From assembly GCA_964367645.1 (NCBI GenBank), contig CAYIYN010000002.1, positions 1 through 36,982 of the forward strand: a stretch of 36,982 nt of DNA, in the 5' to 3' direction. The notes under the pieces were generated by a model. It worked only from the letters and a program-made list of their open reading frames with translations, did no database searches and was not told the DNA's origin. A program made the position numbers and the translations under genes. Positions 5,001 to 35,733 of the stretch are shown here, piece by piece. This DNA comes from an uncultured Bacteroidaceae bacterium. GTDB lineage: Bacteria > Bacillota > Clostridia > Christensenellales > CAG-917. The stretch's first letter is position 1, and every line of letters starts with the position of its first letter.

Positions 5001-6451
5001 GTTCTTCTCACATAGTTTTGAAGAAAATGGCTTTCTTGAAAGTGGACGAACTCGGCGCGCGCATGGGCGAAATAATAAACAGCCTATACTTGTCGGACTT
5101 GGTGGAAATCAATGAATATAATGCAGTTGCACCTTTCGACGGAGCCGACGAGGATCCAAATGCCAGATGGATTATTTCTCCCGATGAAACCTTTACCGAG
5201 GTAGTGGGCGATGACACCTATAGATATACCTTTGTATACGATGCAAACGGCAAATATTACAGAAAAGACATCGATTATGTCGAACTGTCGGCATCTCAAC
5301 TTGCTTCTCTTGAAAACGGCACGGGCGTAAGTTATTCCTATGTTGCTATTCCCGATATGCTTACACTTACTACTTTGACTGCTGCCGGCAACACATATTT
5401 TTATTACTTTGACGACAAGGGAACGGTGGGTACCGAGGACGACGAATATATTTTGTCGACTGCGCTTGCGCTCTATCTTTCGCTCCATGGCGAATTTGAA
5501 AACCTATATTACAGAGATGCTACGGGAACGGATGTTACAAATCAGCAAGCGTGGCTGGAGTGCGGAAATCTTTTCGTTGACTTTATGGGCGAATACGTTC
5601 TCTATGATGCGGACAATCCCGCGCATGTCGAACTTGATAAATATTTCCTTCTCGAAGACGGTTATTATCTTGTTGGCGAAGTGCCGTCAGGACAAACGGC
5701 ATATTACTACAACACCACCACCGACGTATTTAGCACTACCCCGCCTACCCCGCAATCCAACTCACTGTTCTTCATTCAAATACCTGCCGATTCTGACGGA
5801 AAATATTATTTTGTCAAACGTGACTCCGATTTTGAAGCGGCAAAGAAACTCGGCAATACACCCGTAACCTATTCAAAACAAAACTGCGAAACAATATATG
5901 TTGAGTCATTAACCGGCATATTGGTTTTCTACAATGGCGGTTATGTTTCGTTTGAAGAGGCAAATCCCGAACACGAGAGTCTTATACGTTATGACATAGT
6001 GATTGGATATCTCGCTACAATAAACGAAACGGCGAACTATGACGGCGTTTCATATCAAAACTTTTTGTCCACGAACAAGGTGAGTATCACAAAAGCAAAG
6101 AGCGCGCCCGTGCTTGAAGCGTTTGCGCGCGATAAAGTCAAGATTTCGACACTTGACAGCTCGCTCAAAAATTTCACCATTGGGGATCTTATGGAAATCA
6201 CGCCCGACAGCATGTTTGATGATCCTAGCCTCAAAGCGGCAACAATAGATTCGCTTTCAACAATTTTTGTTGAAAAAATGCAGCAGATGACAATCGAAGA
6301 ACTATTAGGCTGGGGCAACATTTCTTCTCTCGACCCCAAAGTTTTGGCCATCATCGGCGGAAACACCCTTGAAGATTTCTTTGGCTCGCTGGTTTATGAA
6401 AACGGCGCAATCTCTGTAAATATGAAAAAATTGTACGGCATAGAATCATAA
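2087..6451 (+). CDS. giant (1454 aa) membrane-anchored acidic Tyr/Asp-rich repeat protein, function unknown
   Basis: Long uninterrupted ORF with AAGGAG (2076-2081) 5 nt upstream. There is a single N-terminal TM helix (LTFVLGMVMGVILFIAAIAGTIYAV). The remainder is acidic, with internal modules and five copies of an (A/D)xxYI(A/E)ANP(D/E) motif. I could not recognise any catalytic motif. Confidence 0.85.
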   Translation: MKILRGTLTFVLGMVMGVILFIAAIAGTIYAVATSISVGQLQETVGVQIFDDKNEINDKTLWDIGTQLINDVPNLMSLSLNEIAAKYGLKTKLDGLSDISGIDISPIFDVPLSEITGSLNKIVEGITLEDVGELAGIDFGEYGLPILERNLYNSVTKALDEIMSSIGGDNLSLRQIENNFGITLGENILFDMVKDVPLSSFGTVINSIKIGTVIDVNCDGFIVQGENAIFVRTDTYEPLSQSNLLTEKDGASKFVYGTDENDNLIYKELRYKVKTTAVKNEETGEITQEPVLDEEENPVYVVDNSCYDEGYVADEDDTVYYRYLEYSAYDALSDYAIDTEYFVPLYLNFYENDDTSYSLTQKGYISLKNLFSDQAMTALYNDSVSGSTITINGGYYAFYETEGGSATAEIMESYGVNAEILINTDSKMELGGEQDKHLKVRTGTSDAAIQAISQITVKGLNNATDSLMDVKLGDLIEVTDESTAILKALKDTRLKDLSNSIDSLTLSDVIDIKTAFYAPNPNGDYVFTATLFAYTAYDPVLHSGLTRYNLNYTADEDGEYAQIEGVWYLYDADDDRMEDVTRYNRTYSEEVPGDDGEYVQIEKGGYYSLYNAAVHEGFVRYSPVKSALNNDYILASSIQIELGTALYYWNGTAMTAADAAYIAANPDAKFYVEGDASAKVLQRLAFATIEGFSEAFDNIALGDAMDIQIDIYATVDAAYIAANPYDDYYYYEDKLFLGADAAYIAANPDATIYRVAVKGNGNAVLKRLVYTTIEEVANKMNMVIDDTSLSDVVDITSDFFHEDANGIYVYVPQGKYYTLYNAALHGELYARFSLYTETAGLDTIHYIAATAEQIALGTDLYYWNGTAMAVADSVYIEANPEAELYVQGSPSSRTLQRFVNVKIGKFSDEFKNLLLCDVIDINGDIFTIADDEYIAANPDGIYYVYADALYSEPQTPPVIGDDVDYYRVAISGSSHIVLKKMAFLKVDELGARMGEIINSLYLSDLVEINEYNAVAPFDGADEDPNARWIISPDETFTEVVGDDTYRYTFVYDANGKYYRKDIDYVELSASQLASLENGTGVSYSYVAIPDMLTLTTLTAAGNTYFYYFDDKGTVGTEDDEYILSTALALYLSLHGEFENLYYRDATGTDVTNQQAWLECGNLFVDFMGEYVLYDADNPAHVELDKYFLLEDGYYLVGEVPSGQTAYYYNTTTDVFSTTPPTPQSNSLFFIQIPADSDGKYYFVKRDSDFEAAKKLGNTPVTYSKQNCETIYVESLTGILVFYNGGYVSFEEANPEHESLIRYDIVIGYLATINETANYDGVSYQNFLSTNKVSITKAKSAPVLEAFARDKVKISTLDSSLKNFTIGDLMEITPDSMFDDPSLKAATIDSLSTIFVEKMQQMTIEELLGWGNISSLDPKVLAIIGGNTLEDFFGSLVYENGAISVNMKKLYGIES
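3602..5089 (+). repeat. intragenic duplicated module of the giant protein (aa 506-788 and 789-1001)
   Basis: Both modules start with LSDV(I/V)DI. Both contain YY(S/T)LYNAA(V/L)HGE, LYYWNGTAM, YI(A/E)ANP(D/E)A..Y(V)(E/Q)G, xxLQR(L/F) and YRVA(V/I)xG...VLK(R/K). The next LSDLVEI boundary is at nt 5090. At the DNA level 4058-4090 and 4304-4336 agree at 31 of 33 positions. Confidence 0.8.
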
Positions 6452-7302: not shown

Positions 7303-7378
7303 GCCTGTTTAGCTCAGTCGGTAGAGCATGCGGCTGTTAACCGCAGTGTCGGGGGTTCGAGTCCCTCAACAGGCGCCA
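7303..7378 (+). tRNA. tRNA-Asn (anticodon GUU), CCA encoded
   Basis: Hand-folded cloverleaf. Acceptor stem GCCTGTT/AACAGGC. D arm GCTC-AGTCGGTA-GAGC. Anticodon stem TGCGG/CCGCA with loop CTGTTAA (GTT at 7336-7338). T arm GGGGG-TTCGAGT-CCCTC. Discriminator G followed by CCA. Confidence 0.95.
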
Positions 7379-7383
7379 AAAAA

Positions 7384-7414
7384 AGCACAACCAATTATGG
7401 CTGTGCTTTTTTTT
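7384..7414 (+). terminator. intrinsic terminator of tRNA-Asn
   Basis: Stem AGCACAACC (7384-7392) / GGCTGTGCT (7399-7407) with one mismatch and loop AATTAT, followed by a T8 tract. Confidence 0.75.
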
Positions 7415-7711
7415 GCGCCTTTTAAGGGCTCAAATCCCCAGCGGTGTACAACACCGCGTGGGCTTTGCCCACAGACACTGCTTTTCGCAGTGAACGCTCG
7501 CTCTCGCAAGTAAACTTGCTCCGCTCACTATTCCGTCGCTTCGCTCCTTACGGGGGTTCATTGACTGCAGTCCAAAGTTCATTTCGCCGTTTCGGTTACG
7601 TACGCTATGTACGCGCCCTCGCTTCTCAACAAAAAAGCGCAATCTCATCTATCCCGCGCTTTTTGCCAGTGCTTTTTTATAGGTTTAGACTTTCAATCCT
7701 AATGAGATGTT
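7411..7711. repeat. 301-bp tandem repeat, copy 1 (hairpin-rich, terminator plus promoter-like 3' end)
   Basis: Aligns base for base with 7712-8012 at an offset of 301. The only difference I see is G7688 versus T7989. Details are in the findings. Confidence 0.95.
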
Positions 7712-8012
7712 TTTTGCGCCTTTTAAGGGCTCAAATCCCCAGCGGTGTACAACACCGCGTGGGCTTTGCCCACAGACACTGCTTTTCGCAGTGAACGCTC
7801 GCTCTCGCAAGTAAACTTGCTCCGCTCACTATTCCGTCGCTTCGCTCCTTACGGGGGTTCATTGACTGCAGTCCAAAGTTCATTTCGCCGTTTCGGTTAC
7901 GTACGCTATGTACGCGCCCTCGCTTCTCAACAAAAAAGCGCAATCTCATCTATCCCGCGCTTTTTGCCAGTGCTTTTTTATAGGTTTATACTTTCAATCC
8001 TAATGAGATGTT
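7712..8012. repeat. 301-bp tandem repeat, copy 2
   Basis: Same as copy 1. The repeat continues for about 5 nt (TTTTG) into a third unit and then diverges (GTGAC versus GCGCC). Confidence 0.95.
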
Positions 8013-8054
8013 TTTTGTGACATAACGTTGTCATTCTTTGGTTTTGCAAAATAA

Positions 8055-8082
8055 AAAACGAACTTCGGTTGAAGTTCGTTTT
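8055..8082 (-). terminator. strong bidirectional intrinsic terminator (serves the GPH symporter gene)
   Basis: Perfect 12-bp stem AAAACGAACTTC / GAAGTTCGTTTT with loop GGTT. An A-tract lies upstream on the plus strand, which gives a U-tract for minus-strand transcripts. T residues lie downstream on the plus strand. Confidence 0.8.
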
Positions 8083-8168
8083 GTTACTTTGTTTATATTT
8101 AGTTTTTTGTGTATTACACTGATAACTTGAATGTTTTTTCCTTCAAATATGTTTTATCTGCTGTTTTT

Positions 8169-9692
8169 TTACTTTGAAATCGTTTCGTCGGTTTCACTGG
8201 GCGCGTCAGACGGCACTTGATTTAATTCGCTTGCGTCGATTGATACGCCGTCGGGGGTGGCGAGAGCGGCTGCCCCTCGCATTTGCTTTAAGCCTTCAAT
8301 CATTTCCTGTTTTTTCTTGCCGACTAGATCGTATTTGAAAATCGGAATACAACTTAGCAAATAGCAGATGCCCGGGAAGCCCGCAAAGGCGAAGTACACC
8401 CAGTTTTGGGTTTCTCTCGATATATCTTTTAGCAGTGAGCCCGAAACGTAACCGCTGCGGCTAATAAACGCAAGCGAAACCGCCGTCACCATTGCCATCG
8501 TTATTTTTATTGCAAAGGAATTGACCGAATAAGATATACCTTCCGTGCGCTTGCCCGTCTTAAATTCATAATAATCCACAGCGTCCGCTATCATGAGCAT
8601 AGGCAGAATGTAATATGCGCCGCAACCCAAGCCTCTAAAGAACAAGAGCACGTATGCGATGTAAATTTTCCAGCCGTCATAGCCGATGGTAAAAGACACG
8701 GCGATACAAATCGCCGATAAAACGAAGTGATAAGTGGACATTCCGATAAAGGTCTTTCTCTCGTCGAATTTTTTAACAAGAATAGGCGATACAATCATTG
8801 AAATCATTCCGCCGATTGCCGTGGATAAACCGACGATTGCCGATTGTCCTTCGTCACCAAGCAGAGCACCGGCGGTCTGCGTGGGGATTGGCACTGCGCC
8901 CATACGCCCGAAACCAATGATATATGAGAGGAAAATCAACATAAGATATTTGTTGTTTTTGATTGCTTTTCCCATTTCTTTTAGGGAGTTTTTCTCGGCG
9001 TGATATACCACCCTTTCCTTGTTGAAAATCGGAATAAGTGCAAAACAACCGCAGCCGATTATTACGCATGCAATAGCGGATATAAGATATTCCAGTTCAT
9101 TAAATCCGCCCGCATTTTCAGAAAACGGTGTGTTTCCGCCCGGCACGCACCAGCACACAACCGGCATAATTACGGCAGGCATAACAAGACCGACAGTCTT
9201 AAAAGTGCTTGAAAGCGTGATTGCCGCATCGCGCTCTTTATTGTCCGTGGTTATAACGGCTGACATTGCTTGCGACGGTATATCACCAAGAGTCATGGCT
9301 ATGCACCACAAGAAATAAGTGATGAATATGTAAAAATACAGCACGGGATCGCTTGCCGATTTAAGTGACTCAAAAGGTGAAAAGATAATTATCGTAAAAA
9401 TTATCAAAGCGGGAATCGAATACCACATAAAGGGCTTCAATTTTCCGATTTTACTCTTGGTGCGGTCGATGAGGTTGCCTATGGCAGGGTCAAAAACTGC
9501 GCTTATAAGTTTGCAAACGAGCAAAATCGTGCCGACGATTGCAAAGTCCGCTCCCATTATTTTGTTGAAAAAACTCGCTTGGTACGAAGTCAGATAACCA
9601 ACTATAATTTGAAATCCGAACAAACCGAAAGCGTAGGCAAACAATTCCTTTTTGGACATTAGCCTGTTCGTGATTGCCGCTTTTTTTGCCAT
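8169..9692 (-). CDS. glycoside-pentoside-hexuronide (GPH):cation symporter family transporter
   Basis: 507-aa polytopic ORF. GGAGGGGG SD. GNLIDRTKSKIGKLKPFM matches the GPH/MelB signature D-R-T-x-S-x-x-G-K-x-K-P. Confidence 0.8.
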   Translation of the reverse strand: MAKKAAITNRLMSKKELFAYAFGLFGFQIIVGYLTSYQASFFNKIMGADFAIVGTILLVCKLISAVFDPAIGNLIDRTKSKIGKLKPFMWYSIPALIIFTIIIFSPFESLKSASDPVLYFYIFITYFLWCIAMTLGDIPSQAMSAVITTDNKERDAAITLSSTFKTVGLVMPAVIMPVVCWCVPGGNTPFSENAGGFNELEYLISAIACVIIGCGCFALIPIFNKERVVYHAEKNSLKEMGKAIKNNKYLMLIFLSYIIGFGRMGAVPIPTQTAGALLGDEGQSAIVGLSTAIGGMISMIVSPILVKKFDERKTFIGMSTYHFVLSAICIAVSFTIGYDGWKIYIAYVLLFFRGLGCGAYYILPMLMIADAVDYYEFKTGKRTEGISYSVNSFAIKITMAMVTAVSLAFISRSGYVSGSLLKDISRETQNWVYFAFAGFPGICYLLSCIPIFKYDLVGKKKQEMIEGLKQMRGAAALATPDGVSIDASELNQVPSDAPSETDETISK

Positions 9693-9717
9693 AATACCCC
9701 CTCCCCGCTAGTATACA

Positions 9718-10698
9718 TTAAACCATATATTCGCCCGTAAACGCAAGCATCTCTTTTTTGTATGCTTCAGTGTTTTTAAAATAACTCTGTCCGTGCCCCG
9801 TGTTTTCGTACAGCACCAGTTTTTTAGGACTTCCGCAAGCGTTATAACAAGCCTCTCCCATAGAATAAGGCACTGTGGCGTCCTTTTTGCCGTGGACAAA
9901 CATAATCGGCACCTTGCTGTTCTTTACCGATTCAAGCGCGCTGACGCCGTTTAAATCAAACTTTGCAATCGCTTTGCAGAAAAACCCGATGATGTTGAGT
10001 ATCGGAAAAGTTGGGACATGAAACATATTTTTCATCTGATATTCCAATTCCTCTTTCGTTGAGGTAAATCCGCAGTCGGAAATTATGCACTTTACGTTTT
10101 GCGGCAAATCAAGACACGACGCTTCCATAACCGCCGCCGCGCCCATAGAATTGCCTTGCATAACGATTTTATAATCGGGATTTTTATTTACAATTAATTC
10201 CAGCCATTTGAGCAAATCTTTGCCCTCCAACTGAGCAAATCCCGAATAAGCACCTTCGCTTTGTTCATGCGCGCGGTGATTTATCATAAACACGTCAAAA
10301 CCGCTTTCAAGATAAAATCTCGCCTGTGCCGGATATGTATTGTAACAAGTGGAGTTAAATCCGTGCGAAAGCAAAACCGCTTTGTCGGTATCCTTGCCGC
10401 ATTTGTAGAAATATCCGCTCAGTGTAAGACCGTCGTCGGAACGCACGGTTATTCTTTCACTTGGCAACTTTTTTAATTCGACAAGGTTGTCTGCATTAAA
10501 TTTGTTGAGATTGTCAAGTTCTTTCCCCATCATTTTGTAGGTGATGGCATTGGGTTTGTAAACGGCCTTGGGACGAGCAAACAATCTTTTAAAAACCAAA
10601 AGCGACGCTAAAACTAAAAGTAACACCAAACCGAGCACAACACCAAAAACGGTAATAACGATGTCGGTCGTGCTCATTGCTGATAGTATAGAGGTCAT
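9718..10698 (-). CDS. membrane-anchored alpha/beta-fold serine hydrolase
   Basis: 326-aa ORF with an AAGGAGA SD. N-terminal TM helix. HGFNS oxyanion-type motif, nucleophile elbow GNSMGA, and later HGKKDATVP and GHG, consistent with a Ser-Asp-His triad. Confidence 0.75.
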   Translation of the reverse strand: MTSILSAMSTTDIVITVFGVVLGLVLLLVLASLLVFKRLFARPKAVYKPNAITYKMMGKELDNLNKFNADNLVELKKLPSERITVRSDDGLTLSGYFYKCGKDTDKAVLLSHGFNSTCYNTYPAQARFYLESGFDVFMINHRAHEQSEGAYSGFAQLEGKDLLKWLELIVNKNPDYKIVMQGNSMGAAAVMEASCLDLPQNVKCIISDCGFTSTKEELEYQMKNMFHVPTFPILNIIGFFCKAIAKFDLNGVSALESVKNSKVPIMFVHGKKDATVPYSMGEACYNACGSPKKLVLYENTGHGQSYFKNTEAYKKEMLAFTGEYMV

Positions 10699-11068
10699 AA
10701 TAATCTCCTTTAAATCTATCTTTATGTGGATATTTATCGCACGCTTGTTGCGTGCTTAATTGGAATTGTAAATTAATTTGTTTTGGCGGCGTCTTTTCCT
10801 TTAGCCTAAAACTGCTAACGATTGAGAAAAGATTGCCGACTCAACATAATGTAAAAGTTCCGATAAAACGGCGACAAGCCATCTTTGTTACACTTTTAAC
10901 AAGTTATATTAGGCTCGCTTTTACACATTTCACCGAATATGTTATCAAAAAAACGCGCCAGATGGAAGAGAAAAGCCAAAATTCATAAAATTGGCTAATC
11001 ATCCAAACGTTTGCCTGCGTAATTTTTGAAGCCTTTCTCGGTTTTTATGCCCCGTCTTCTCTCTTTGA

Positions 11069-11389
11069 TTATTTGTCCGTATCTTTATTCTCTTCTATTT
11101 CTTTCGGGCTTTTGCACGGAGATTTTTTAACTCCGAAAAAGATTATCGCCACCATAAATGCCGCTATCGAAAAGAAAAGCAACAGCGTTGCAAGTTGCCC
11201 CATAATGTCAGTAATAAAGGGCTTTCTCACAGTCGCGGAATATTCTGCAAACATGAAGGATATTCCGTTAGCTCTGTCGTCGGCGGCATAGTGGAAAAAC
11301 ACATAATTCAACCCGTACATAATGCCGGAAGCGACAAGATTTATCAGTGACAGTAGGTACAGCTTCTTTTTTACAACCTGTTTATCCAT
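11069..11389 (-). CDS. small membrane protein (2-3 TM), unknown function
   Basis: 106-aa ORF starting 4 nt after the stop of the upstream dehydrogenase gene. GAGGA lies 11 nt upstream. It has hydrophobic segments and a charged C-tail. Confidence 0.55.
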   Translation of the reverse strand: MDKQVVKKKLYLLSLINLVASGIMYGLNYVFFHYAADDRANGISFMFAEYSATVRKPFITDIMGQLATLLLFFSIAAFMVAIIFFGVKKSPCKSPKEIEENKDTDK

Positions 11390-11393: not shown

Positions 11394-12332
11394 TTATTTG
11401 TCCTCTTTTATTGCTTTCATGACTTTGATGACTTTCATATTTCTCTTGGCCTGAAGTTCCGCTCTTTCTTGACCGGTATAGTCTTTAAATCCTTTACCTG
11501 ATTTTATGCCGAGTCTTCCCTCTTTTATCATTTCCCCTGCTAATTTCGACGGTGTCATCTTTCTGCTAAGGAAAGGATAAAGCAGTCTTCCTACCTTTGC
11601 GGCAACGTCCCATCCGATATAATCCATAAGTTCAAGCGGACCTTCAAAAGGTGCTTTTAAACCTTGATTGCAGGTGAAAGCGGTGTCCACGTCTTCCATT
11701 GTCACCCAGCCTTTTTCCACCATGTAACTTGCTTCTCTAAGCAGCGCTGCAGTCATGCGGTTGACGATAAATCCGGGTACGTATTTGTTCAAGACGGCAG
11801 GTTTTTTGCCGATTTTTTCCATCAGCGCTCGTATATCCGTGACAAGTTCGGGCGCGGTGCAAGGTCCGCAAACTACCTCCACCAACGGTACGATATGCGA
11901 CGGATTGTTGAAGTGCGTGATTATAACTCTTTCGGGGTGGCTGACTTTTACGACTCCGAAAACGTTCATTGCAGAAGTTGTGCTGGATAGCACGCAGTCA
12001 GGACGGCAAACTTTGTCAAGAGTTGCAAACACCGACGCTTTTATTGCCTTAACTTCAGGCACGGCTTCAATGACCAAATCAGCGTCTTTTGCGGCATCGT
12101 AACTGTCGGAATAGGACAAATGTTTTTCGGTGTTCGCCGCTTGTTCTTCGGTTATAAAATTCTGCTCCAGCATAACGCGCACGTTTGCGGCAACCAGTTT
12201 CTTTGCCGTTTCCAAAGCCTCTTTTTTTACATCTATAACTATTGTATCGTAACCGAATGAGGCAAACGTTTGGGCAATTCCGTGGCCCATTGTGCCTGAA
12301 CCTATTACGGCTATGTTTTTGAATTCTCTCAT
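11394..12332 (-). CDS. NAD-dependent 3-hydroxyacyl-CoA dehydrogenase-fold enzyme (Hbd / L-carnitine dehydrogenase / CRYL1 superfamily)
   Basis: Rossmann motif IAVIGSGTMGHGIAQ. Catalytic-type residues STTS, THFNNPSHIVPLVEV (His, Glu) and GFIVNR. The start is moved to ATG 12332 (MREFKN), 5 nt downstream of AAGGAGA. The TTG at 12347 used by the ORF track lies inside that SD. Confidence 0.8.
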   Translation of the reverse strand: MREFKNIAVIGSGTMGHGIAQTFASFGYDTIVIDVKKEALETAKKLVAANVRVMLEQNFITEEQAANTEKHLSYSDSYDAAKDADLVIEAVPEVKAIKASVFATLDKVCRPDCVLSSTTSAMNVFGVVKVSHPERVIITHFNNPSHIVPLVEVVCGPCTAPELVTDIRALMEKIGKKPAVLNKYVPGFIVNRMTAALLREASYMVEKGWVTMEDVDTAFTCNQGLKAPFEGPLELMDYIGWDVAAKVGRLLYPFLSRKMTPSKLAGEMIKEGRLGIKSGKGFKDYTGQERAELQAKRNMKVIKVMKAIKEDK

Positions 12333-12350
12333 CTTATCTCCTTTCAAAGT

Positions 12351-12387
12351 TTAATTTCTCCGAGAGAATTTTTTTCGGAGAAATTAA
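12351..12387 (-). other. 13-bp stem-loop immediately upstream of the dehydrogenase SD
   Basis: TTAATTTCTCCGA (12351-12363) pairs with TCGGAGAAATTAA (12375-12387). No U-tract follows on the minus strand. It may be an mRNA processing, stability or attenuation element. Confidence 0.5.
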
Positions 12388-12433
12388 CTTGTAGTGCACC
12401 GTTACAGCGTGCGCGCGATACGCGCGCGCGCCG

Positions 12434-12467
12434 AAAATCGGTTTGCCCGATAAGGCAAACCGATTTT
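12434..12467 (-). terminator. intrinsic terminator-like hairpin directly after the ThDP-enzyme stop codon
   Basis: Perfect 14-bp stem AAAATCGGTTTGCC / GGCAAACCGATTTT with loop CGATAA. The stem ends in TTTT on the minus strand. A third GC hairpin (GCGCGCG-ATA-CGCGCGC, about 12410-12426) lies between the two. Confidence 0.55.
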
Positions 12468-12469
12468 AA

Positions 12470-14113
12470 CTAGAATGCGAAGCCTATCTTGACGTCCGTC
12501 ATTACGTTGACAACGGAAGGCTTGTCTTGTGCAAGGGCTCTGTCAATTGCTGCGCCGATGTCTTCAGGTTTGGTTACATATTCGCCGTAACCGCCCAAAT
12601 CTTCAATGACCTTGTCATATCTTACGTCGCGCAGATAAAGTCCGATAAATTCTTTGCCGGGAGCGGCTTTCTTCGCTTCGGAGTTCTTTATCATGCCCCA
12701 GCAGCTGTCGTTTAGAATCACTGTTGTAATCTTGATACCGTAACGCAAGCAGGTGTCATATTCCATTGCACCGTAGCCGAATGCGCCGTCGCCGGTCAGA
12801 AGTATAACTTTTTTGTCGGGGTGAGCCAGTTTTGCGGCTATTGCATAAGGAACGCCCACGCCAAGAGGTCCGAAGCTGCCGTTTGCAATGGTTAACAGTT
12901 GTCCGGGTCCCATTGCGGGCAGAGTCATATTGCCCCAAGATGCGGTGTCGCCGCCGTCTATAACAACAATCGTGTCTTTGTCAATGCGCTTTCTGAGTTC
13001 TGCGCAAAGACGGACGGGGTGAATCGGGATTTGAGGAGAGGTAAATGCCTGTCCCATGAACATCATCATTTGTCCAAGACTGTCTTTGAGCATTCCAATC
13101 CATTCGGTGTGTTTGGCGGGCTTGACTGCGGAAATGAGTTGCTTGAGTATTTCTTTTGCATCGCCCACGACGCCGTGCTTGATGTCAAGCTGGTCAGAAA
13201 TTGCCGCTCCGGCGATGTCTATACGGAGGATAGGTGCGCCCTTCGGGAAAGAGTTTTTGGGAAGGGTGTAACCGGTTCTTGTTCCGAGGACTATGATAAG
13301 GTCGGAGTTATCAATGGCTGCTTGGCAAACGGGGTGTTTGCTTGAACCTATGCAGATTGAGAGCGGGTGAGTGTCAGGAACTATGCCGCGTCCTGCGTTT
13401 CTTGTGAAAATCGGGCAATCGACTTTTTCGATGAATTCGGTCAGTTCTTTTGCCGCATCTGCCCAAAACGCACCGCTGCCCGCGATGACGATAGGGCTCT
13501 TTGCCGCGTCGATAAGTTCTGCCGCTTTTTTGATGTCTTCTGAATTGCCGGCGGGCTTGCCTCTGAAGCGCCAAGTGTCTTGCAGTTCGACTTTGGATTC
13601 GTCATACGCGACCGCTTCCATTTTGTCACGAGGAACTTCAAGGTACACCGGGCCCGGACGATCGTTCATTGTTTCGGCGATAGCTCTGCCGAAATACTCG
13701 GGTATTCTCATTCCGTCGGGAATTTGTCTTGCGTGTTTGCACATGTCGCCAACGAGCGGCATTTGATTGAAGTCTTGAAGTTCGTTGCGATCGAACTCTG
13801 AAACCTTTGCCTTGCCGCCTACGCAAAGAAGCGGAACTTGGTTGCAACTGGCGTTTGCGACACCGGTAATAAGGTTTGTAAATCCGGGGCCTGCCGTGCC
13901 GGTGCACACACCGGTTTTGCCGGTTGTGAGAGCCCAGCCTTCAGCCATGAACGCTGCGTTCATTTCGTGACGGCAACTGATAAATTTAATTCCTGCGTCG
14001 TTGCACGCTTCTACCATAGGATAAATATGTCCGCCGGGAAGTCCGAAGATATATTTTATCCCTTCTTTGGAAAATACTTTTTCTATTAGTTGTCCACCGT
14101 TTAATAATGCCAT
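12470..14113 (-). CDS. thiamine-diphosphate enzyme of the acetolactate synthase / oxalyl-CoA decarboxylase / 2-hydroxyacyl-CoA lyase superfamily
   Basis: 547-aa ORF with an AGGAGG SD. Catalytic-Glu context CRHEMNAAFMAEGW. GTAGPGFTN. ThDP-binding motif GDGAFGYGAMEYDTCLRYGIKITTVILND. NELQDFNQ sits where ALS enzymes have DAFQE and OXC/HACL have DYEELDQ. Confidence 0.8.
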   Translation of the reverse strand: MALLNGGQLIEKVFSKEGIKYIFGLPGGHIYPMVEACNDAGIKFISCRHEMNAAFMAEGWALTTGKTGVCTGTAGPGFTNLITGVANASCNQVPLLCVGGKAKVSEFDRNELQDFNQMPLVGDMCKHARQIPDGMRIPEYFGRAIAETMNDRPGPVYLEVPRDKMEAVAYDESKVELQDTWRFRGKPAGNSEDIKKAAELIDAAKSPIVIAGSGAFWADAAKELTEFIEKVDCPIFTRNAGRGIVPDTHPLSICIGSSKHPVCQAAIDNSDLIIVLGTRTGYTLPKNSFPKGAPILRIDIAGAAISDQLDIKHGVVGDAKEILKQLISAVKPAKHTEWIGMLKDSLGQMMMFMGQAFTSPQIPIHPVRLCAELRKRIDKDTIVVIDGGDTASWGNMTLPAMGPGQLLTIANGSFGPLGVGVPYAIAAKLAHPDKKVILLTGDGAFGYGAMEYDTCLRYGIKITTVILNDSCWGMIKNSEAKKAAPGKEFIGLYLRDVRYDKVIEDLGGYGEYVTKPEDIGAAIDRALAQDKPSVVNVMTDVKIGFAF

Positions 14114-14140: not shown

Positions 14141-15874
14141 TTACCAATTACGATAATCGAGATGTTTGTACTTTTCCAGATGTCTTACCGGCAAGTTTAG
14201 CGCGTCGCGTCTGAACGGAGGTGCAAGCTGTGTGCCGTCAACCTCAAATTGAATGACTGTCGGGCGATTGGACGCTATTGCGGATTTAATCGCGGGACCA
14301 ACGTCTTCGGGTTTGTCAACGAATATACCGTTTGCGCCCATAGATTTTGCAACTTCTGCAAAGTTGGGAGCCTCAATATCAACGCCTATAAAGCGGTTGT
14401 CATAGAAATCAATCTGGTTTTTCTTTTCTGCGCACCAGGCGGTGTTGTGGAACACGCAAGATACCGTGGGAATATTTTCTTGAACTGCGGTTGACACTTC
14501 GTGCAAACTCATGCCCCATGCGCCGTCGCCGACGATGTTGATGACCGGGCAGTCGGGACGTGCAAGTTTTGCACCAAGACCGGCAGGATACGAGAATCCG
14601 GTGTTGCCGAAAGTCAAAGCCGCGATGTGCTTTTTGCCTTCGTTGAAGTTGAAATAAGTGTTTGCCGTGGATGCAACGTTTCCGATATCCGTGGCAACTA
14701 TCGTGTTTTCAGGGATTGCTTTTGAGATTTCAAGCAACACTCTGCGGGGATTCATAGGTTTGCCGGGAACCATCGCCAGGTCAACAATTTCTTTTGCAAA
14801 ATCATCTTTTTCCTTTTTGATTTCTGCCAAACGGTCATTATCTATCTTTCGTGTGCCGATTTTTGCTTCGAGCAGTTTCAAAATTTCTATGGAAGCCGCT
14901 TTCGCGTCGCCGATTATACCGACTTCGACAGGGTGCGTACGCGCAATGTTGAGCGGGTTGATGTCGATTTGAATGATTTTTGCCGTTTCCGGGAAATAAT
15001 CGATGTCAAATTGAGGAAGTGTGCCGAAAACCGACAAGCGTGTGCCGATTGCAAGCACGACGTCAGCCTGCGCCATAAGTTTCATGGCCGCTTTGCTGCC
15101 CATATAACCGATAGGGCCTGCCCAAAGAGGATGGTTTTTGGGGAATGCGTCGTTATGAAGGTAAGTGCAAGCAACGGGTGCGGTCAACAGTTCTGCGATT
15201 TTTGCTACGATATCCTGACAATCGGTGTCGACTACGCCGCGTCCCGACACAATAACGGGTTTTTTTGCGCTTGCAAGTATTTCTACCGCTCTTTTTAGCG
15301 ATTCGGGAGCTCCACAACCGCGATCATCGACGCGGTATTGGTGAGGTTCAAGTATATAATCTTCAACTTCGCCGTAGAAATAATCTCTCGGTATGTCCAA
15401 AAGCACCGGCCCGCGAAGTGCATATGCCATGCGGAATGCCGTTCTTGTGCAGTCTGCAGCGCGGGAAGGATGAGGAATTCTGATTGTCGCTTTGGTTATC
15501 GCTTTGAAAACCGAAACCTGATCGCATTCTTGGAAACCGTCCCAACCCACGGATTTTGTTCCTGCCGAGGGAGATATGACTACCATAGGGGTATGTCCCA
15601 TATTCGCGGCCGCAACGGACGTCACCATATTTGTGATTCCGGGACCGTTCTGTCCGATGACGACGCCGGCCTTGCCGCTAATTCTTGAATAGGCGTCTTC
15701 CATGTGAGCTGCGCTCTGTTCATGACGCACGGGGATAAATCTTATACCCGCGGCAGGAAACAGATCCAGCAAATCCATGAATGCCGAACCGACGATACCG
15801 GATACGTGATCAATTCCCTCTGCTACCAGCGTTTCACAAATTGCTTCGCTGGCAATCATTTTTAATTTTTGCAT
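14141..15874 (-). CDS. xsc: sulfoacetaldehyde acetyltransferase-like ThDP enzyme (Xsc, EC 2.3.3.15 candidate)
   Basis: 577-aa ORF with an AAGGAGG SD. Long stretches match my memory of characterised Xsc proteins. These include [73 protein letters not shown]...[25 protein letters not shown], and the C-terminal APPFRRDAL. Confidence 0.7.
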
Positions 15875-15929
15875 TTTGTTGCCTCCTTAAGGTACATTAA
15901 TTGTAATTATATTTTTTTTCTTTCCATAA

Positions 15930-15967
15930 TTTAAGCCCTCGCGCGCTCTGCGCACGTTGGGCTTAAA
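15930..15967 (-). other. intercistronic stem-loop between the symporter and xsc
   Basis: TTTAAGCCC (15930-15938) pairs with GGGCTTAAA (15959-15967), with an inner GCGC/GCGC pairing. No clean U-tract follows on the minus strand, so it is not called a terminator. Confidence 0.45.
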
Positions 15968-15979
15968 GTGTTTGGTCTA

Positions 15980-17545
15980 TCATTCAGCCGAAGTGCCTTC
16001 AGCCAATTCGCCGTAGTCGGACGCTTCCACCGTTTCCGCGACTCCGTCCAAATCCGATGTATCGCCGTCTTGTGCAACATTAATTCCCTTTTTAATTTTT
16101 ATTAGACGCGATATATCGTCGCGGCGAATAAGCCCATACAACACACAAAACAGAACTGTGAATATCACCAGTCCAATTGCAAGTTTTGTATAACTTGCGG
16201 CGACAAACGTCATGAGCAGCATAATCGGCGCGCCCAAAACCAAGGAGTACAAAGTTTGGAAAACCATGTTGTTACAAGCAGGTGTTTTGAAATCAGGATC
16301 GATCTCGCGCAACAAAATTATGCCCGTACTTGCCGTGCCGGTGAGCATTCCGTACATGCAAAGGAAGGATTCTTCATAATAGCCGTCTTTTGCGTACAGG
16401 TGCTTACAAACGTGTTTAACATAGAAATAAGATGCCACACATCCGACCACGGACATTAAAACGAGAGGCACGATAAATTCAGTACGCGCAAATGCAGTGA
16501 GGTCGATTGCACCGAGTGCGGCTACAACCATTACGTCAAAGAACATACCGGACATTCTGTCCAAGAGATAGTTGTTGGTATATTGTTTTTTAACAATTCC
16601 TTTTTTGGTAAGTTTTTTCAAAATGAATTTGAAGAGCATTGCAATTCCGGTGCCGATTATGAAGTTGAATCCCCAAAAGAGCGGTTTTACGGTATTTATC
16701 AAAAAATTAATTCCACTGGCATCGCAGCCCTTACTTATTCCGTATATGAGTGCAAACGACACTGCGTATGCAAGCAATACAAGTCCGAGTTGTACACTGA
16801 ATTTGTCAACGGTTTGTGAAGACGGAATTTCATTTTCGTCAGTAAATGTTTTGACTGTGACTGTTTCTTTGTCTGTATCAACTTTGTCAACAAACTTGAC
16901 GTTCCCCTTTCTGCGCTCTTTATTGAGGTAAATTACGCCACCGATACTCGCCGACACAAAGCCCATAGCGGCAATAGTCAGACCGAAGCTCTTTCCTCCT
17001 GCGAAGGCGCCGAACTCGCTGCTAATCATATTTTCGTAATTCATTCCCCAGTTGAATGCTTGTCCGGGTCCTTGACCGAAACCCATCGGCAAAAGCATTC
17101 CCGATGCCGCCCAACTGCCGATAGCAAAAGAAAGTATTAAGGATATTATCAATCCTAATATACCTTGCATAAGATACGAAGATACCGTAATAAGCGAACT
17201 GTTAAATATTGCTTTCTGCGCTTTCTTGCCGCTTAACTTCTCTTGTGATTTAAGAGCAACGGCAATAAAACCCATTCCCAAGCAGTGGTAAGTCAGCATT
17301 TCCAAAATAAACGTATTGAAAAGCGGTTTTCCTGCGATTGACTGATAAACAGCTAATACGGCTAGCAAAATAAATCCGCCTAAGACCGGACTGGGAATGA
17401 GTGCTTTACGTAGTGGTTTAATCATTTTTATAAGCGCGTTTGCGATGAGCAAGACAACAAAAATGGCTGTCATAACTAGAACAAACGCCCAAAAATTAAG
17501 ATCATCAAATTGCATAGTAATATATGCATTATAGAATTCTTGCAT
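15980..17545 (-). CDS. GltS/ESS-family sodium:solute symporter homologue (521 aa)
   Basis: Polytopic ORF with an AAGGGGGA SD. IPSPVLGGFILLAVLAV resembles E. coli GltS IPEPVAGGLLVAL. YGMLTGTASTGIILLREIDPDF resembles GltS GHCGFGLGATPTAIANMQAI. It has a longer central loop and an acidic C-tail. Confidence 0.65.
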   Translation of the reverse strand: MQEFYNAYITMQFDDLNFWAFVLVMTAIFVVLLIANALIKMIKPLRKALIPSPVLGGFILLAVLAVYQSIAGKPLFNTFILEMLTYHCLGMGFIAVALKSQEKLSGKKAQKAIFNSSLITVSSYLMQGILGLIISLILSFAIGSWAASGMLLPMGFGQGPGQAFNWGMNYENMISSEFGAFAGGKSFGLTIAAMGFVSASIGGVIYLNKERRKGNVKFVDKVDTDKETVTVKTFTDENEIPSSQTVDKFSVQLGLVLLAYAVSFALIYGISKGCDASGINFLINTVKPLFWGFNFIIGTGIAMLFKFILKKLTKKGIVKKQYTNNYLLDRMSGMFFDVMVVAALGAIDLTAFARTEFIVPLVLMSVVGCVASYFYVKHVCKHLYAKDGYYEESFLCMYGMLTGTASTGIILLREIDPDFKTPACNNMVFQTLYSLVLGAPIMLLMTFVAASYTKLAIGLVIFTVLFCVLYGLIRRDDISRLIKIKKGINVAQDGDTSDLDGVAETVEASDYGELAEGTSAE

Positions 17546-17569
17546 AATGAGTCCCCCTTATTTCGTCAT

Positions 17570-17600
17570 CATTATAACACGCTCCAGATTATAATGTAAA
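17570..17600 (-). promoter_or_regulatory. promoter of the symporter-xsc operon overlapped by a 27-bp palindrome
   Basis: Read on the minus strand: TTTACA (17595-17600), 18-bp spacer, TATAAT (17571-17576). The palindrome CATTATAA-N11-TTATAATG (17570-17596) covers the -10 box and the spacer and runs 2 nt into the -35 box. A third CATTATAAT copy lies at 17620-17628. Confidence 0.5.
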
Positions 17601-17669
17601 GTATGCCTTTTGTTAAGAACATTATAATCAAAAGCTAATATTTGAGCTTAAAAAAACCAAAATTTTGTT

Positions 17670-17700
17670 GAAAAAGCGGTGCTTTTTTTACGACACCGCT
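17670..17700 (-). terminator. intrinsic terminator of the LysR-type regulator gene
   Basis: Minus strand: AGCGGTG-(12-nt loop)-CACCGCT followed by TTTTT. Stem arms are at 17675-17681 and 17694-17700. Confidence 0.7.
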
Positions 17701-17727
17701 ATGTTTTTCATTGTAAATACGTTAATA

Positions 17728-18615
17728 TCAACTTTCGCGCCTTGAGCTGTCGTAGCACGCTTTTACAAACCTTTTCATTGAATTAGTAAAGTATTTATCT
17801 TTGTGATATATAAGTTTGAACGATCTTGTGAGTTTTGCGTCGCTTATTCCGCACATCCAAAGTTCGCCTTTTTCCACGTCTTCTTCGACAAGTTTTTCAG
17901 ATATAACCGTTACCCCAAGGTTTTCTTTAACTGCTTTAATAACTATATCGGTGCTGCAACAACTCCATCTGACCTTTGCGCGATATCCGGCTCCTTCAAG
18001 CTGTTCAAGAAATTGAACTCTCGTGCCGCTGCCCTCTTCTCTTAAAACAAGAGGAATATTGTCGAGATCTCTAAGCGATATGGATTCGCGCCCGTAAAAA
18101 GCGTGTTTTGGAGAACAGGCAAGGACAAGTTTGTCATCGATAATTATCTCGGAGCGCAAATCGTCGCTTGTTATTTCACCCTCTACATAACCTATATCCA
18201 AGTCGTTTGATAAGATCTTTTTTTCTATAAGCCGAGTGTTTCCTATTAGTACAGAATAATTAAAATATTGGTCGCTTGCCGATAGTTCGGCAACCATCTT
18301 TTTTAAAAGCGATGCGCCCACGGTGACTGACGTGCCTATCCTAATTCGCGCATTTCTCGAATCGTGCATAAGAGTGCTGCGCATCTCCGTCTCCAAATTG
18401 AGGATATTTCTGGCGTATGATATAACGTCACTTCCCACTGCGGTCAAATGCAAACCGTTTTTGAGTCTGTCAAAGAGCAACACACCGTATTCCTTTTCAA
18501 TATCAGAAACCGTCTGGCTGACAGAAGACTGTGTTATGTTGAGTTTTGCGGCCGCTTTGCTCATGTTTCCGCACTCTACAATTGCCATAAGTATCTCTAA
18601 ACTTCTTATTGTCAT
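17728..18615 (-). CDS. LysR-type transcriptional regulator
   Basis: N-terminal wHTH MTIRSLEILMAIVECGNMSKAAAKLNITQSSVSQTVSDIEKEYGVLLFDR plus a C-terminal substrate-binding domain. The start is moved to ATG 18615, downstream of AGGAGG. The upstream 20 codons in the ORF track have no SD. Confidence 0.85.
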   Translation of the reverse strand: MTIRSLEILMAIVECGNMSKAAAKLNITQSSVSQTVSDIEKEYGVLLFDRLKNGLHLTAVGSDVISYARNILNLETEMRSTLMHDSRNARIRIGTSVTVGASLLKKMVAELSASDQYFNYSVLIGNTRLIEKKILSNDLDIGYVEGEITSDDLRSEIIIDDKLVLACSPKHAFYGRESISLRDLDNIPLVLREEGSGTRVQFLEQLEGAGYRAKVRWSCCSTDIVIKAVKENLGVTVISEKLVEEDVEKGELWMCGISDAKLTRSFKLIYHKDKYFTNSMKRFVKACYDSSRRES

Positions 18616-18680
18616 TTGGACACCTCCTTTCCAAATTTTAATGTAAATACAACAAAGTGTCAATGCAATTTTCAACTATC

Positions 18681-18698
18681 CATAAGGAAAAACTTATG
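18681..18698. promoter_or_regulatory. inverted repeat CATAAG-N6-CTTATG, candidate LysR recognition site
   Basis: Perfect 6-bp arms at 18681-18686 and 18693-18698. The centre lies about 66 bp upstream of the TSS predicted from the asr promoter. Confidence 0.4.
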
Positions 18699-18720
18699 AA
18701 GCCTTTAGGATTTTTCGTAC

Positions 18721-18749
18721 TTTACACTTCGACACGACAAAGTTATACT
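18721..18749 (+). promoter_or_regulatory. sigma-A type promoter of the asr operon
   Basis: TTTACA (18721-18726), 17-bp spacer, TATACT (18744-18749). This implies a leader of about 130 nt before ATG 18887. Confidence 0.5.
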
Positions 18750-18886
18750 ACTTTTAGATATGCAATACGGGCATAAAGAAAACAACAGCAACAAATAAAG
18801 AAGGATTGAACCAAATTTGAAAAGCCATGAGATTGATTTTTGGGCGTTTCACGATTTGGCGCATCCTAAGTTAAAAGGAGGAAAAT

Positions 18887-19207
18887 ATGAATTTTTTGAC
18901 AGGAAAGTGGAAAATCGTTGCTCATTCGCCGCTTGGTGACATGGCTCTCACGGCCGACTTCGTGGTTGACGAAAGCACATCCACGTTTACAGGATCCGTC
19001 TATGACGAAGGCAACAAGAAGACTTACGGGGTCTCAAACGGTGTAATAAACGACCATCACATTTCCTACGATATGCTCATCAAATTCGGCCTTATCCCGT
19101 TCAGCTTCCATCTTGAAGGCGACTTCAAAGATGACGGAACTTGCACGGGCGAAGCCAAAGCTATGAAGATGACGGGCACTTACGAAGGCTACAAAGTTGT
19201 CGAATAA
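18887..19207 (+). CDS. small soluble protein (106 aa), possible calycin/lipocalin-like beta-barrel, unknown function
   Basis: Strong AAGGAGG SD. N-terminal GKWKI (G-x-W, as in calycins), then alternating beta-strand-like pattern. It is the first gene of the asr transcription unit, 18 nt before asrA. Confidence 0.6.
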   Translation: MNFLTGKWKIVAHSPLGDMALTADFVVDESTSTFTGSVYDEGNKKTYGVSNGVINDHHISYDMLIKFGLIPFSFHLEGDFKDDGTCTGEAKAMKMTGTYEGYKVVE

Positions 19208-19225
19208 CTTTTAAAGGAGAAAGAC

Positions 19226-20254: not shown

Positions 20255-20266
20255 GAGGGCGATATA

Positions 20267-21058: not shown

Positions 21059-21068
21059 GAGGTAGAAT

Positions 21069-22153: not shown

Positions 22154-22186
22154 GGCGAGCGGTGATAATCCCGTTCGCCGTTTTTG
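22154..22186 (+). terminator. intrinsic terminator of the asr operon
   Basis: Stem GGCGAGCGG (22154-22162) / CCGTTCGCC (22171-22179, one G-U pair) followed by GTTTTT. Confidence 0.65.
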
Positions 22187-22191
22187 CAGAT

Positions 22192-31338: not shown

Positions 31339-31345
31339 AACAGAA

Positions 31346-34682: not shown

Positions 34683-34694
34683 TGTCCTGTCCCC

Positions 34695-35709: not shown

Positions 35710-35733
35710 GTTTTTTGGTTTCGTTGCGAATTA

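Follow-up and report, generated by a model that had tools for sequence, protein, structure and literature searches.

What supplies the sulfoacetaldehyde on which the desulfonating enzyme Xsc of contig CAYIYN010000002.1 would act? This contig (GenBank assembly GCA_964367645.1), from an uncultured bacterium assigned to the Clostridia lineage CAG-917, was analysed over 36,982 nucleotides, which are referred to here as the window and appear to make up the whole metagenomic contig. Xsc, sulfoacetaldehyde acetyltransferase, converts sulfoacetaldehyde and phosphate into acetyl phosphate and sulfite. Its gene is the third in an operon-like row of five on the minus strand, running from about 18.7 kb to 11.4 kb, which encodes a LysR-family regulator, a polytopic membrane protein (T521), Xsc, a thiamine diphosphate (ThDP) enzyme and an NAD-dependent dehydrogenase of the 3-hydroxyacyl-CoA dehydrogenase (3HCDH) fold. 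The original prediction for this DNA proposed the last two as an unusual source of sulfoacetaldehyde, arguing that they lie directly downstream of xsc in the same orientation and that the known sources are missing. The coordinates of the open reading frames (ORFs) agree with this arrangement, and the motifs quoted for both proteins occur in their translations. Pfam and NCBIfam scans of the window's ORFs of at least 100 aa found no aminotransferase, Fe-dependent alcohol dehydrogenase (Fe-ADH), short-chain dehydrogenase/reductase (SDR), aldehyde dehydrogenase, ComDE-type enzyme, transketolase or SauS. With a rough probability of 0.6, the pair forms a CoA-independent two-step feeder that would convert an imported sulfonate of the form Z-CH(OH)-CH2-SO3- into sulfoacetaldehyde.

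Two enzymes downstream of this feeder have firmly identified genes. Xsc exceeds the cut-offs of PRK07525 (840 bits against 620) and TIGR03457 (824 against 676), and at the aligned position it carries the Glu reported for Xsc as E510 (PMC13327070). Divergent from the row, on the plus strand, lie the gene for a conserved 106-aa protein (s106) and asrABC, whose products all exceed their equivalog cut-offs (TIGR02910, 404 against 323; TIGR02911, 341 against 289; TIGR02912, 339 against 324). AsrABC is proposed to be the sink for the sulfite freed by Xsc.

Gene linkage across genomes speaks for the feeder. Related loci (numbered with L) were collected by scanning one genome per species and adding metagenomic contexts; ORFs were then called and the neighbours recounted by tblastn. 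A ThDP protein with 47% identity or more to that of the window defines the close set of 30 non-redundant loci. In 26 of them, the dehydrogenase gene occurs no more than 6 kb from the ThDP gene, and 20 contain an Xsc of at least 60% identity; contig ends truncate several of the loci in which one or the other is missing. In one locus (L012), the Xsc and dehydrogenase genes lie under antisense ORFs and were counted by tblastn. Both genes are absent from all 42 non-redundant, full-length distant loci (ThDP protein at most 42% identical), and the only positives of the recount in that index range were L046 and L050, which are dehydrogenase-like, and the truncated close-family fragments L047 and L069. 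The identities of the ThDP enzyme and the dehydrogenase to their window counterparts co-vary (r = 0.87, n = 23). The arrangement recurs in dozens of unrelated contigs and thus reflects more than chance.

The carriers are Clostridia and Peptococcaceae of herbivore guts, Syntrophomonadaceae of digesters, Coriobacteriia of termite guts, and Spirochaetes; cultured representatives are Desulfitobacterium sp. THU1 and Desulfosporosinus fructosivorans 63.6F. In its minimal form (L008, L010), the cluster comprises LysR, transporter, Xsc, ThDP enzyme and dehydrogenase beside AsrABC, followed by unrelated genes. AsrABC adjoins the module in the window, in L007-L010 and in L015, and L007-L010 share the divergent arrangement, while in Syntrophomonadaceae the module follows dsrMKJOP-dsrC-dsrN.

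The most informative variant is found in two Spirochaete loci (L006, L014), which have no Xsc. Downstream of the pair, these loci encode a SauS-like acylating sulfoacetaldehyde dehydrogenase (NF047625, 532 bits, E 1e-159, with the next model far behind), an ADP-forming, SucCD-like CoA ligase and a DASS transporter. This combination matches the SqwD/SqwKL branch, in which sulfoacetaldehyde is converted to sulfoacetate with formation of ATP (PMC12890257). Two different consumers of sulfoacetaldehyde, Xsc on the one hand and the SauS-like enzyme with its ligase on the other, thus stand behind the same pair, which indicates sulfoacetaldehyde as the product of the pair and bears out the link that the original prediction had drawn from a single locus.

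An alternative is that the pair does not feed sulfoacetaldehyde at all. The dehydrogenase would then be an isethionate dehydrogenase, and the ThDP enzyme would serve a separate task, such as carboligation or the detoxification of sulfoacetaldehyde or acetaldehyde; or else the pair as a whole would act on a non-sulfonate co-substrate. In rumen microcosms, isethionate, itself a beta-hydroxy-sulfonate, was the sulfoquinovose product that predominated; at the positions of I492/E493 of the 2-hydroxyacyl-CoA lyase AcHACL, the ThDP enzyme has Met/Ile, as acetolactate synthases do; and all functions discussed here are inferred. Yet an isethionate route would not need a ThDP enzyme, the coupling between ThDP enzyme and dehydrogenase is tighter than that of either to Xsc (26 versus 20 of 30 loci, with co-varying identities), and the pair stays in place when the SauS-like enzyme and ligase replace Xsc. 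In none of the related loci examined is the pair found with an acetolactate synthase small subunit or with ilv or acetoin genes. On balance, this alternative is improbable.

What kind of enzyme carries out the ThDP step? The protein has all three pyruvate-oxidase-type domains (PF02776, PF00205 with 109 bits, and PF02775), a ThDP-binding motif of the GDG...N type (GDGAFGYGAMEYDTCLRYGIKITTVILND) and the segment NELQDFNQ at residues 110-117. It falls below every curated NCBIfam cut-off. The best model, PRK05858, is named 'acetolactate synthase' (403 against 587), and the acetolactate synthase model TIGR00118 is missed by a similar gap (314 against 538). The cut-offs are also missed for 2-hydroxyacyl-CoA lyase (HACL; NF058623, 317 against 600), for oxalyl-CoA decarboxylase (OXC; PRK09259, 268 against 557, and TIGR03254, 244 against 739) and for Xsc (288 against 620), which speaks against a second Xsc copy. 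The dehydrogenase behaves in the same way (see below); both proteins thus stand outside assigned families, and their homologues in a large protein database bear only generic names. A pairing of ordinary acetolactate synthase with 3-hydroxybutyryl-CoA dehydrogenase (Hbd), the outcome that would have undone the proposal, finds no backing in these scores or in any ilv or als context, as far as sequence comparison can tell.

The nearest solved relatives of the ThDP enzyme are HACL/HACS, AcHACL, OXC and benzaldehyde lyase (BAL), at 26-30% identity and TM scores of 0.85-0.91. A confident structure model (pLDDT 85) gives Foldseek TM scores of 0.87-0.91 to HACS, AcHACL and BAL. Fold similarity could not serve as a discriminator, since HACS, OXC, Gcl, BAL and AHAS all match the model almost equally (TM 0.85-0.91). 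By sequence, HACL/HACS enzymes are the best solved matches (284 and 244 bits); they share the three-domain ThDP fold (TM 0.88-0.89). The protein can be placed in an HACL/OXC-related clade of the pyruvate-oxidase superfamily that is devoid of CoA-binding features.

This last point follows from individual residues, which were mapped on HACL by direct alignment, with numbering offsets fixed by matching the named residues. Contacts to the acyl-CoA have been described for R260 and R400 of ApbHACS (PMC11271303) and for Q255, R273, S274, R362, R417, D561 and K564 of AcHACL (PMC8760513). The substrate-positioning residues H44, T88, L127 and Q128 of AcHACL correspond to H29, T73, L112 and Q113 of the ThDP enzyme and are invariant in its family. 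The acyl-CoA-binding Arg pair (R260/R400 of ApbHACS, equivalent to R273/R417 of AcHACL) is replaced by S258 and N395, and no conserved Arg occurs at either position among 40 family members. The C-terminal lid is missing as well: only 11 residues follow the aligned position 536, against about 45 in AcHACL, including the CoA-contacting D561 and K564. The position of the ADP-binding Arg (R152 in the ThDP enzyme) is variable in the family.

These losses bear on the second of the two schemes in the original prediction, according to which a sulfo-2-hydroxyacyl-CoA of the sulfolactyl-CoA type is cleaved by a genuine HACL into formyl-CoA and sulfoacetaldehyde. HACL/HACS and OXC are indeed among the best solved and NCBIfam relatives of the ThDP enzyme, relatives of the dehydrogenase occur in CoA contexts, and relatives of the ThDP enzyme from Dehalococcoidia that sit beside CoA-transferases likewise lack both Arg. 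However, the check for CoA-binding residues that had been suggested turned out negative for the Arg pair and the lid, the family scores lie far below the HACL and OXC cut-offs, and the tightly linked dehydrogenase would be left without a role. Gene context points the same way. Within 9 kb of the ThDP gene, 39 related loci contain no CoA ligase (a lone AMP-ligase-like match lies 9 kb off in L026) and no formyl-CoA-handling enzyme, nor is a family-III CoA-transferase found near the module in these loci; the SucCD-like ligase occurs among related loci only in those of Spirochaetes, behind the SauS-like gene. Scheme (b) is thus very unlikely, and residues and context together suggest, on comparative grounds, a ThDP step independent of CoA.

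The likeness to HACL/HACS extends to the proposed chemistry. Both would cleave the bond next to a ThDP-activated carbonyl and then protonate the resulting carbanion. OXC belongs to the same ThDP subfamily and decarboxylates a 2-oxo group on an activating substituent, which is a formal analogue of the conversion of sulfopyruvate to sulfoacetaldehyde; its CoA- and ADP-binding residues are not kept in the ThDP enzyme. The latter is accordingly proposed to be a beta-keto-sulfonate-cleaving enzyme that would free sulfoacetaldehyde.

The second member of the pair consists of a 3HCDH_N domain (PF02737) and a 3HCDH C-terminal domain (PF00725) and contains NPSHIVPLVEVV. Its ORF codes for 317 aa, but translation probably begins at the ATG at 12332, which an AAAGGAG ribosome-binding site precedes; the protein would then have 312 aa. 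The catalytic residues S120, H140, E152 and N191 are invariant. The best NCBIfam model is FHMPC_DH (230 against a cut-off of 500), followed by Hbd-type models (226 against 508, 219 against 429 and 209 against 408), and the best solved relative is FHMPC dehydrogenase (4om8, 195 bits), whose substrate is CoA-independent. The two enzymes have in common the catalytic Ser/His/Glu/Asn, the motif NP[SP]HI[VI]P[LM][VI]EV, for which Hbd has NPAPVMKLVEV, and K226, where Hbd has Pro. The segments NPSHIVPLVEV and GLKAPFEGP agree with FHMPC dehydrogenase, while the Hbd signatures NPAPVMKLVEV and GANHPMGP are not found. Neighbour-joining separates the module dehydrogenases from Hbd and PaaH and places them, as two clades of their own, in an FHMPC-dehydrogenase-like supergroup. 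The window's enzyme stays well below the equivalog cut-off for FHMPC dehydrogenase, and the substrate and pathway of that enzyme (vitamin B6 breakdown) are unrelated.

One segment of the dehydrogenase had previously been likened to a free-acid branch of the fold. This comparison holds insofar as the enzyme groups with the CoA-independent FHMPC dehydrogenase and not with Hbd, but sister relatives lie beside AMP-dependent ligases. The likeness to carnitine dehydrogenase and lambda-crystallin does not extend to the whole protein: the scores are 122-123 bits for carnitine dehydrogenase models (cut-offs 414 and 592) and 106-113 bits for lambda-crystallin structures, below those for Hbd (about 170-226 bits). 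Only the short NPxH..PLVE segment appears to resemble these two proteins. Sequence relationships and context make the enzyme a proposed beta-hydroxy-sulfonate dehydrogenase.

A four-step route can be drawn from this. The identities of the Xsc and AsrABC genes, the conserved linkage and the missing CoA-binding features are observations; what the two enzymes catalyse, in which order and on which substrate is inferred. The sulfonate would be taken up by a transporter, T521 in the window and an AAHS-type MFS or a DASS transporter in other lineages. With NAD+, the 3HCDH-fold enzyme would then oxidise the hydroxyl group beta to the sulfonate (the counterpart of the acyl carbonyl in a 3-hydroxy acid) and generate the beta-keto-sulfonate Z-CO-CH2-SO3-. 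In the third step, ThDP would add to the new carbonyl and the Z-C bond would break. If Z is a carboxylate, as in sulfopyruvate derived from sulfolactate, CO2 would leave, in parallel to OXC; if Z is CH2OH or CH(OH)R, an aldehyde would leave, in parallel to HACL, and oxidised 2,3-dihydroxypropane-1-sulfonate (DHPS) would yield formaldehyde. Protonation of the remaining ThDP adduct would free sulfoacetaldehyde. Finally, Xsc would produce acetyl phosphate and sulfite, the latter being reduced to sulfide by AsrABC, or by Dsr in other lineages; in Spirochaetes, sulfoacetaldehyde would instead be turned into sulfoacetate with a gain of ATP.

The identity of Z leaves room for several versions. In rough terms, sulfolactate and DHPS are about equally likely as the substrate, each of them being a possibility well short of a probable one, and a longer or otherwise different Z is improbable. 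The first scheme of the original prediction, in which sulfolactate is oxidised to sulfopyruvate and this is decarboxylated, survives in this sense as one of two leading versions; a CoA-independent cleavage of oxidised DHPS or of a longer homologue, which the original prediction did not consider, fits about equally well.

If 3-sulfolactate is the substrate, the dehydrogenase would form 3-sulfopyruvate and the ThDP enzyme would be a sulfopyruvate decarboxylase unrelated to ComDE, so that the module would be a non-orthologous replacement of the SlcD/ComC, ComDE and Xsc route. The decarboxylation of sulfopyruvate by ComDE to feed Xsc is an established route, known from Roseovarius nubinhibens. With CO2 as the sole by-product, the minimal clusters are complete without any extra enzyme, and the Spirochaete variant becomes a clean, ATP-yielding fermentation to sulfoacetate. 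Dianions such as dicarboxylates are the usual cargo of GltS-like and DASS transporters, an extra SDR present in several loci could serve the other enantiomer, and OXC shows that the ThDP subfamily includes a decarboxylase. This version, which we regard as tentative, meets with difficulties at the active site, where the His/Thr/Gln set is that of the lyase AcHACL and not of known decarboxylases of the superfamily; benzaldehyde lyase has the same set. In addition, sulfolactate was not detected in rumen microcosms, and the module's habitats (herbivore guts and digesters) are anoxic, so that reduced products are to be expected.

A further difficulty for sulfolactate arises from a pyridoxal phosphate (PLP) enzyme. 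Its gene stands in one operon with those for the MFS transporter, the dehydrogenase and the ThDP enzyme in seven related loci (L022, at 7311-8639, L023, L024, L026, L027, L030 and L031) and is also found in three distant ones (L066, L075, L085). By sequence, it is a soluble member of the sphingosine-1-phosphate lyase family (430 bits to 3mad); an MfnA-like decarboxylase was considered and dismissed (128 bits). This family cleaves 2-amino-3-hydroxy skeletons. The presence of the enzyme hints that amino-hydroxy-sulfonates, for example cysteinolate or sulfonolipid bases of the capnine type, are broken down, and suggests a hydroxy-amine or diol skeleton for the module's substrate, not one of the cysteate/sulfolactate kind.

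Such a skeleton fits the second version, in which DHPS or a longer 2,3-diol sulfonate is oxidised at C2 to 3-hydroxy-2-oxopropane-1-sulfonate (or its homologue), and a CoA-independent lyase of the HACL type splits this into formaldehyde, or another aldehyde, and sulfoacetaldehyde. The reaction would be an exact analogue of that of HACL/HACS (glycolyl-CoA to formaldehyde and formyl-CoA), with -CH2-SO3- in place of -S-CoA, and all four substrate-positioning residues of AcHACL are kept. Genes for handling aldehydes are frequent in the operons, with an aldehyde ferredoxin oxidoreductase in about 9 loci and a Zn-dependent alcohol dehydrogenase (Zn-ADH) in several, and the PLP enzyme would fit the amino analogues. 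In a clade from Desulfobacterota, SDRs partner the ThDP enzyme, and among known SDRs, HpsO/HpsP oxidise C2 of DHPS. In human and mouse guts, moreover, the anaerobic breakdown of sulfoquinovose yields DHPS as a major product. Against this version, which is likewise doubtful, stand the toxicity of formaldehyde, for which the minimal clusters encode no remover, the absence of detectable DHPS in cow-rumen microcosms, and the transporters of the GltS-like and DASS types, which would be better suited to a dianion. Acyloin cleavage is also thermodynamically uphill unless pulled.

The feeder model has weak points of its own. The ThDP enzyme lacks the carbanion-protonating Glu (E493 of AcHACL), which is aligned with I475; a Glu stands there in all 24 Xsc sequences. 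E479 is a candidate proton donor. The model also has to account for the release of sulfoacetaldehyde from an intermediate that, in Xsc, loses sulfite. The dehydrogenases beside the ThDP gene belong, as far as the tree indicates, to two separate clades, and their closest relatives outside the module (43-49% identity) adjoin AMP-dependent ligases, in two of three cases together with CoA-transferases, which makes the use of a CoA ester by the dehydrogenase possible. CoA-transferase genes also flank the ThDP gene in eight loci of a distant clade (Dehalococcoidia and L041), and the Dehalococcoidia members, too, lack the two acyl-CoA-binding Arg; the loss of these residues is therefore suggestive and no proof. 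In the window, finally, a hairpin-rich spacer between the two genes could uncouple the expression of the dehydrogenase.

How does the proposed feeder compare with known sulfonate systems? The module may achieve the same overall conversion as ComDE with SlcC/SlcD/ComC, that is, sulfolactate via sulfopyruvate to sulfoacetaldehyde and on to Xsc. The components differ. ComDE consists of two small subunits, or a fusion of them, with N- and C-terminal ThDP domains only and no central domain, whereas the enzyme described here is a single 547-aa chain that includes the central domain PF00205. To our knowledge, the sulfolactate dehydrogenases described so far have other folds than 3HCDH. The sulfo-transketolase SqwGH likewise releases sulfoacetaldehyde with the help of ThDP in strict anaerobes, and the Spirochaete loci share with that system a SauS/SqwD-like dehydrogenase and an ADP-forming ligase. 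SqwGH, however, is a transketolase: it requires a sugar phosphate as acceptor and has sulfofructose or sulfoerythrulose as its substrate, and no transketolase, isomerase or sulfoquinovosidase occurs in the related loci examined.

The pair was not described in the full-text literature searched, including 2026 reviews of sulfoquinovose and sulfonate catabolism. We propose that it represents new enzyme families feeding a known desulfonation hub, Xsc. Among the major sources of sulfur for hydrogen sulfide formation in guts, digesters and sediments are sulfonates (sulfoquinovose products, taurine, sulfonolipids), and the anaerobic routes known so far depend for the most part on the glycyl-radical enzymes of Desulfovibrionaceae or on SuyAB. 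If the feeder exists, Firmicutes, Coriobacteriia and Spirochaetes would gain an entry of their own to the Xsc (or SauS) hub, and two sizeable protein clades now labelled 'acetolactate synthase' and '3-hydroxybutyryl-CoA dehydrogenase' would receive a function. It would also mean that an HACL/OXC-type enzyme works without CoA, and surveys of sulfonate-driven sulfidogenesis would gain marker genes that they currently overlook. The cultured carriers THU1 and 63.6F make the module directly testable.

More speculatively, the ThDP step might be new chemistry, with a CoA-independent HACL relative splitting an alpha-hydroxy-ketone sulfonate into sulfoacetaldehyde and formaldehyde or another aldehyde; we consider this possible but not probable. 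Its substrate would be 3-hydroxy-2-oxopropane-1-sulfonate, formed from DHPS by the 3HCDH-fold dehydrogenase or an SDR, or a longer homologue. This would amount to a third anaerobic route for DHPS, independent of oxygen and of glycyl radicals, that spans Clostridia, Peptococcaceae, Syntrophomonadaceae, Coriobacteriia, Spirochaetes and probably Desulfobacterota, and in some of these lineages the sphingosine-1-phosphate-lyase-like enzyme would handle amino analogues (cysteinolate, capnine-type).

Features of the window, with the basis of each assignment
Feature	Positions	Strand	Basis or remark
Two long ORFs (1454 aa; 613 aa)	2087-6451; 29533-31374	+; -	no Pfam match
106-aa membrane ORF, alpha/beta hydrolase (326 aa), GPH/MFS_2 transporter (507 aa)	8169-11389	-	downstream of the dehydrogenase
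NAD-dependent dehydrogenase, 3HCDH fold	11394-12332	-	PF02737 + PF00725; ORF reaches TTG at 12347
Structured spacer between ThDP and dehydrogenase genes	12333-12469	-	RNA folding
ThDP enzyme, 547 aa	12470-14113	-	PF02776, PF00205, PF02775
Xsc, sulfoacetaldehyde acetyltransferase	14141-15874	-	NCBIfam PRK07525 + TIGR03457
T521, 521-aa polytopic membrane protein, distant GltS/ESS-like transporter, presumed sulfonate importer	15980-17545	-	sub-threshold Pfam
Two overlapping sigma-70-like promoter matches upstream of the T521 gene	17571-17616	-	consensus matches only
LysR-family regulator, head of the row	17728-18675	-	PF00126 + PF03466
s106, conserved 106-aa protein, divergent from the LysR gene	18887-19207	+	without family
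AsrA 19226-20254, AsrB 20267-21058, AsrC 21069-22136	19226-22136	+	TIGR02910/TIGR02911/TIGR02912
FecCD-type ABC transporter (binding protein, permease, ATPase)	22162-24929	+	after asrC
RecF-like protein	32425-33549		
ParB, ParA/Soj, DNA polymerase III beta subunit	33786-36909	-	

The ThDP gene starts 27 nt after the xsc stop, with an AGGAGG ribosome-binding site inside this gap. The spacer on its other side folds into three stable hairpins (-60.1 kcal/mol against -33.4 +/- 3.8 for shuffled sequence, z = -7.1), the first of which is terminator-like but followed by just four U. It may be a partial terminator or an mRNA-stabilising element, and transcription into the dehydrogenase gene of this contig may be attenuated by its hairpins. 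In relatives, the gap between the two genes is only 12-61 nt, and the hairpin spacer is not shared.

Homologues of the LysR regulator hold the same position in L006-L012, L015 and L017; its family matches start at residue 20-21, which indicates a true start probably later than the TTG chosen by the ORF finder. The promoter matches read TTAACA-17-TATAAT and TTTACA-18-TATAAT, the latter with a TG extension, and agree with the consensus at 11 of 12 positions each, although the number of such sites in the region is not above that in shuffled sequence. T521 scores 20 bits with the Pfam model Glt_symporter (cut-off 26) and has no NCBIfam match. It occupies the same position in 8 of 30 related loci; elsewhere, AAHS-type MFS or DASS transporters take its place. 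Homologues of T521 were considered as a clue to the substrate, but those of about 50% identity are stand-alone genes in unrelated neighbourhoods. Wherever T521 is the transporter, s106 is kept beside the LysR gene. Neither Pfam nor NCBIfam assigns this small protein to a family. Its homologues in L006-L009, L011-L013 and L016, some of them Spirochaete loci without Asr, share 45-71% identity with it, and a single-sequence structure model of low confidence (pLDDT 60) predicts it to be all-beta.

The FecCD-type transporter behind asrC recurs in L007 and L008. Behind the Asr genes of L015 lie hemA, hemC and a fused cobA/hemD (15908-19554); this is consistent with a supply of the sirohaem cofactor for sulfite reductase. 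The alpha/beta hydrolase and GPH transporter downstream of the dehydrogenase were rejected as part of the system, being common only to the closest relative, L009; as the minimal clusters run into unrelated genes at this point, they are not core. They may be an add-on for a conjugated or glycosidic sulfonate.

Several relatives contain additional enzymes. The extra SDR was tried as the sulfoacetaldehyde reductase IsfD, but its matches among solved structures are generic, the best being 2,3-butanediol dehydrogenase (108 bits). A glycyl-radical enzyme by the module in L016 was tested as an isethionate or DHPS lyase and proved to be the choline TMA-lyase CutC (1669 bits), accompanied by its microcompartment shell, and thus to have no connection with the module. 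In the Desulfitobacterium loci L032 and L033, an Fe-ADH gene follows Xsc (14146-15351; lactaldehyde reductase, 313 bits; SarD model, 219 bits). Its product may be an isethionate dehydrogenase and thus a second feeder for these strains. A small SCP2-domain protein is encoded between the ThDP gene and Xsc in the same two loci.

Immediately upstream of the main module, two Peptococcaceae loci of ruminant hindgut origin have a further, paralogous one (L013, 2386-6702; L016, 2132-6428). It comprises a dehydrogenase (35% identity), a ThDP enzyme (50%), a DASS/CitMHS transporter and a LysR regulator, with no Xsc within 10 kb, and its presence suggests two related substrates.

Beyond the close set, the Desulfobacterota clade of the ThDP enzyme (36-40% identity; L054, L059, L063, L066, L072, L073, L075, L076, L079, L080, L082, L085, L086) has an SDR as partner, often a Zn-ADH, and transporters of the T521, DASS, SBF or MFS type. 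L080 and L082 have an Xsc-like gene close by that encodes the Xsc signature residues, and L072 has Dsr genes there. This clade may follow the same pathway with a different dehydrogenase, in which case the sulfonate role would reach beyond the close clade. The Dehalococcoidia clade (35-37% identity; L060, L061, L064, L067, L074, L077, L078), whose ThDP gene is flanked by family-III CoA-transferases (two in several loci) and in most loci accompanied by a MaoC-like protein, is probably a genuine CoA-dependent lyase system.

At the right end of the window, the genes for ParB, ParA/Soj, the DNA polymerase III beta subunit and a RecF-like protein indicate that the contig adjoins the chromosomal replication origin.

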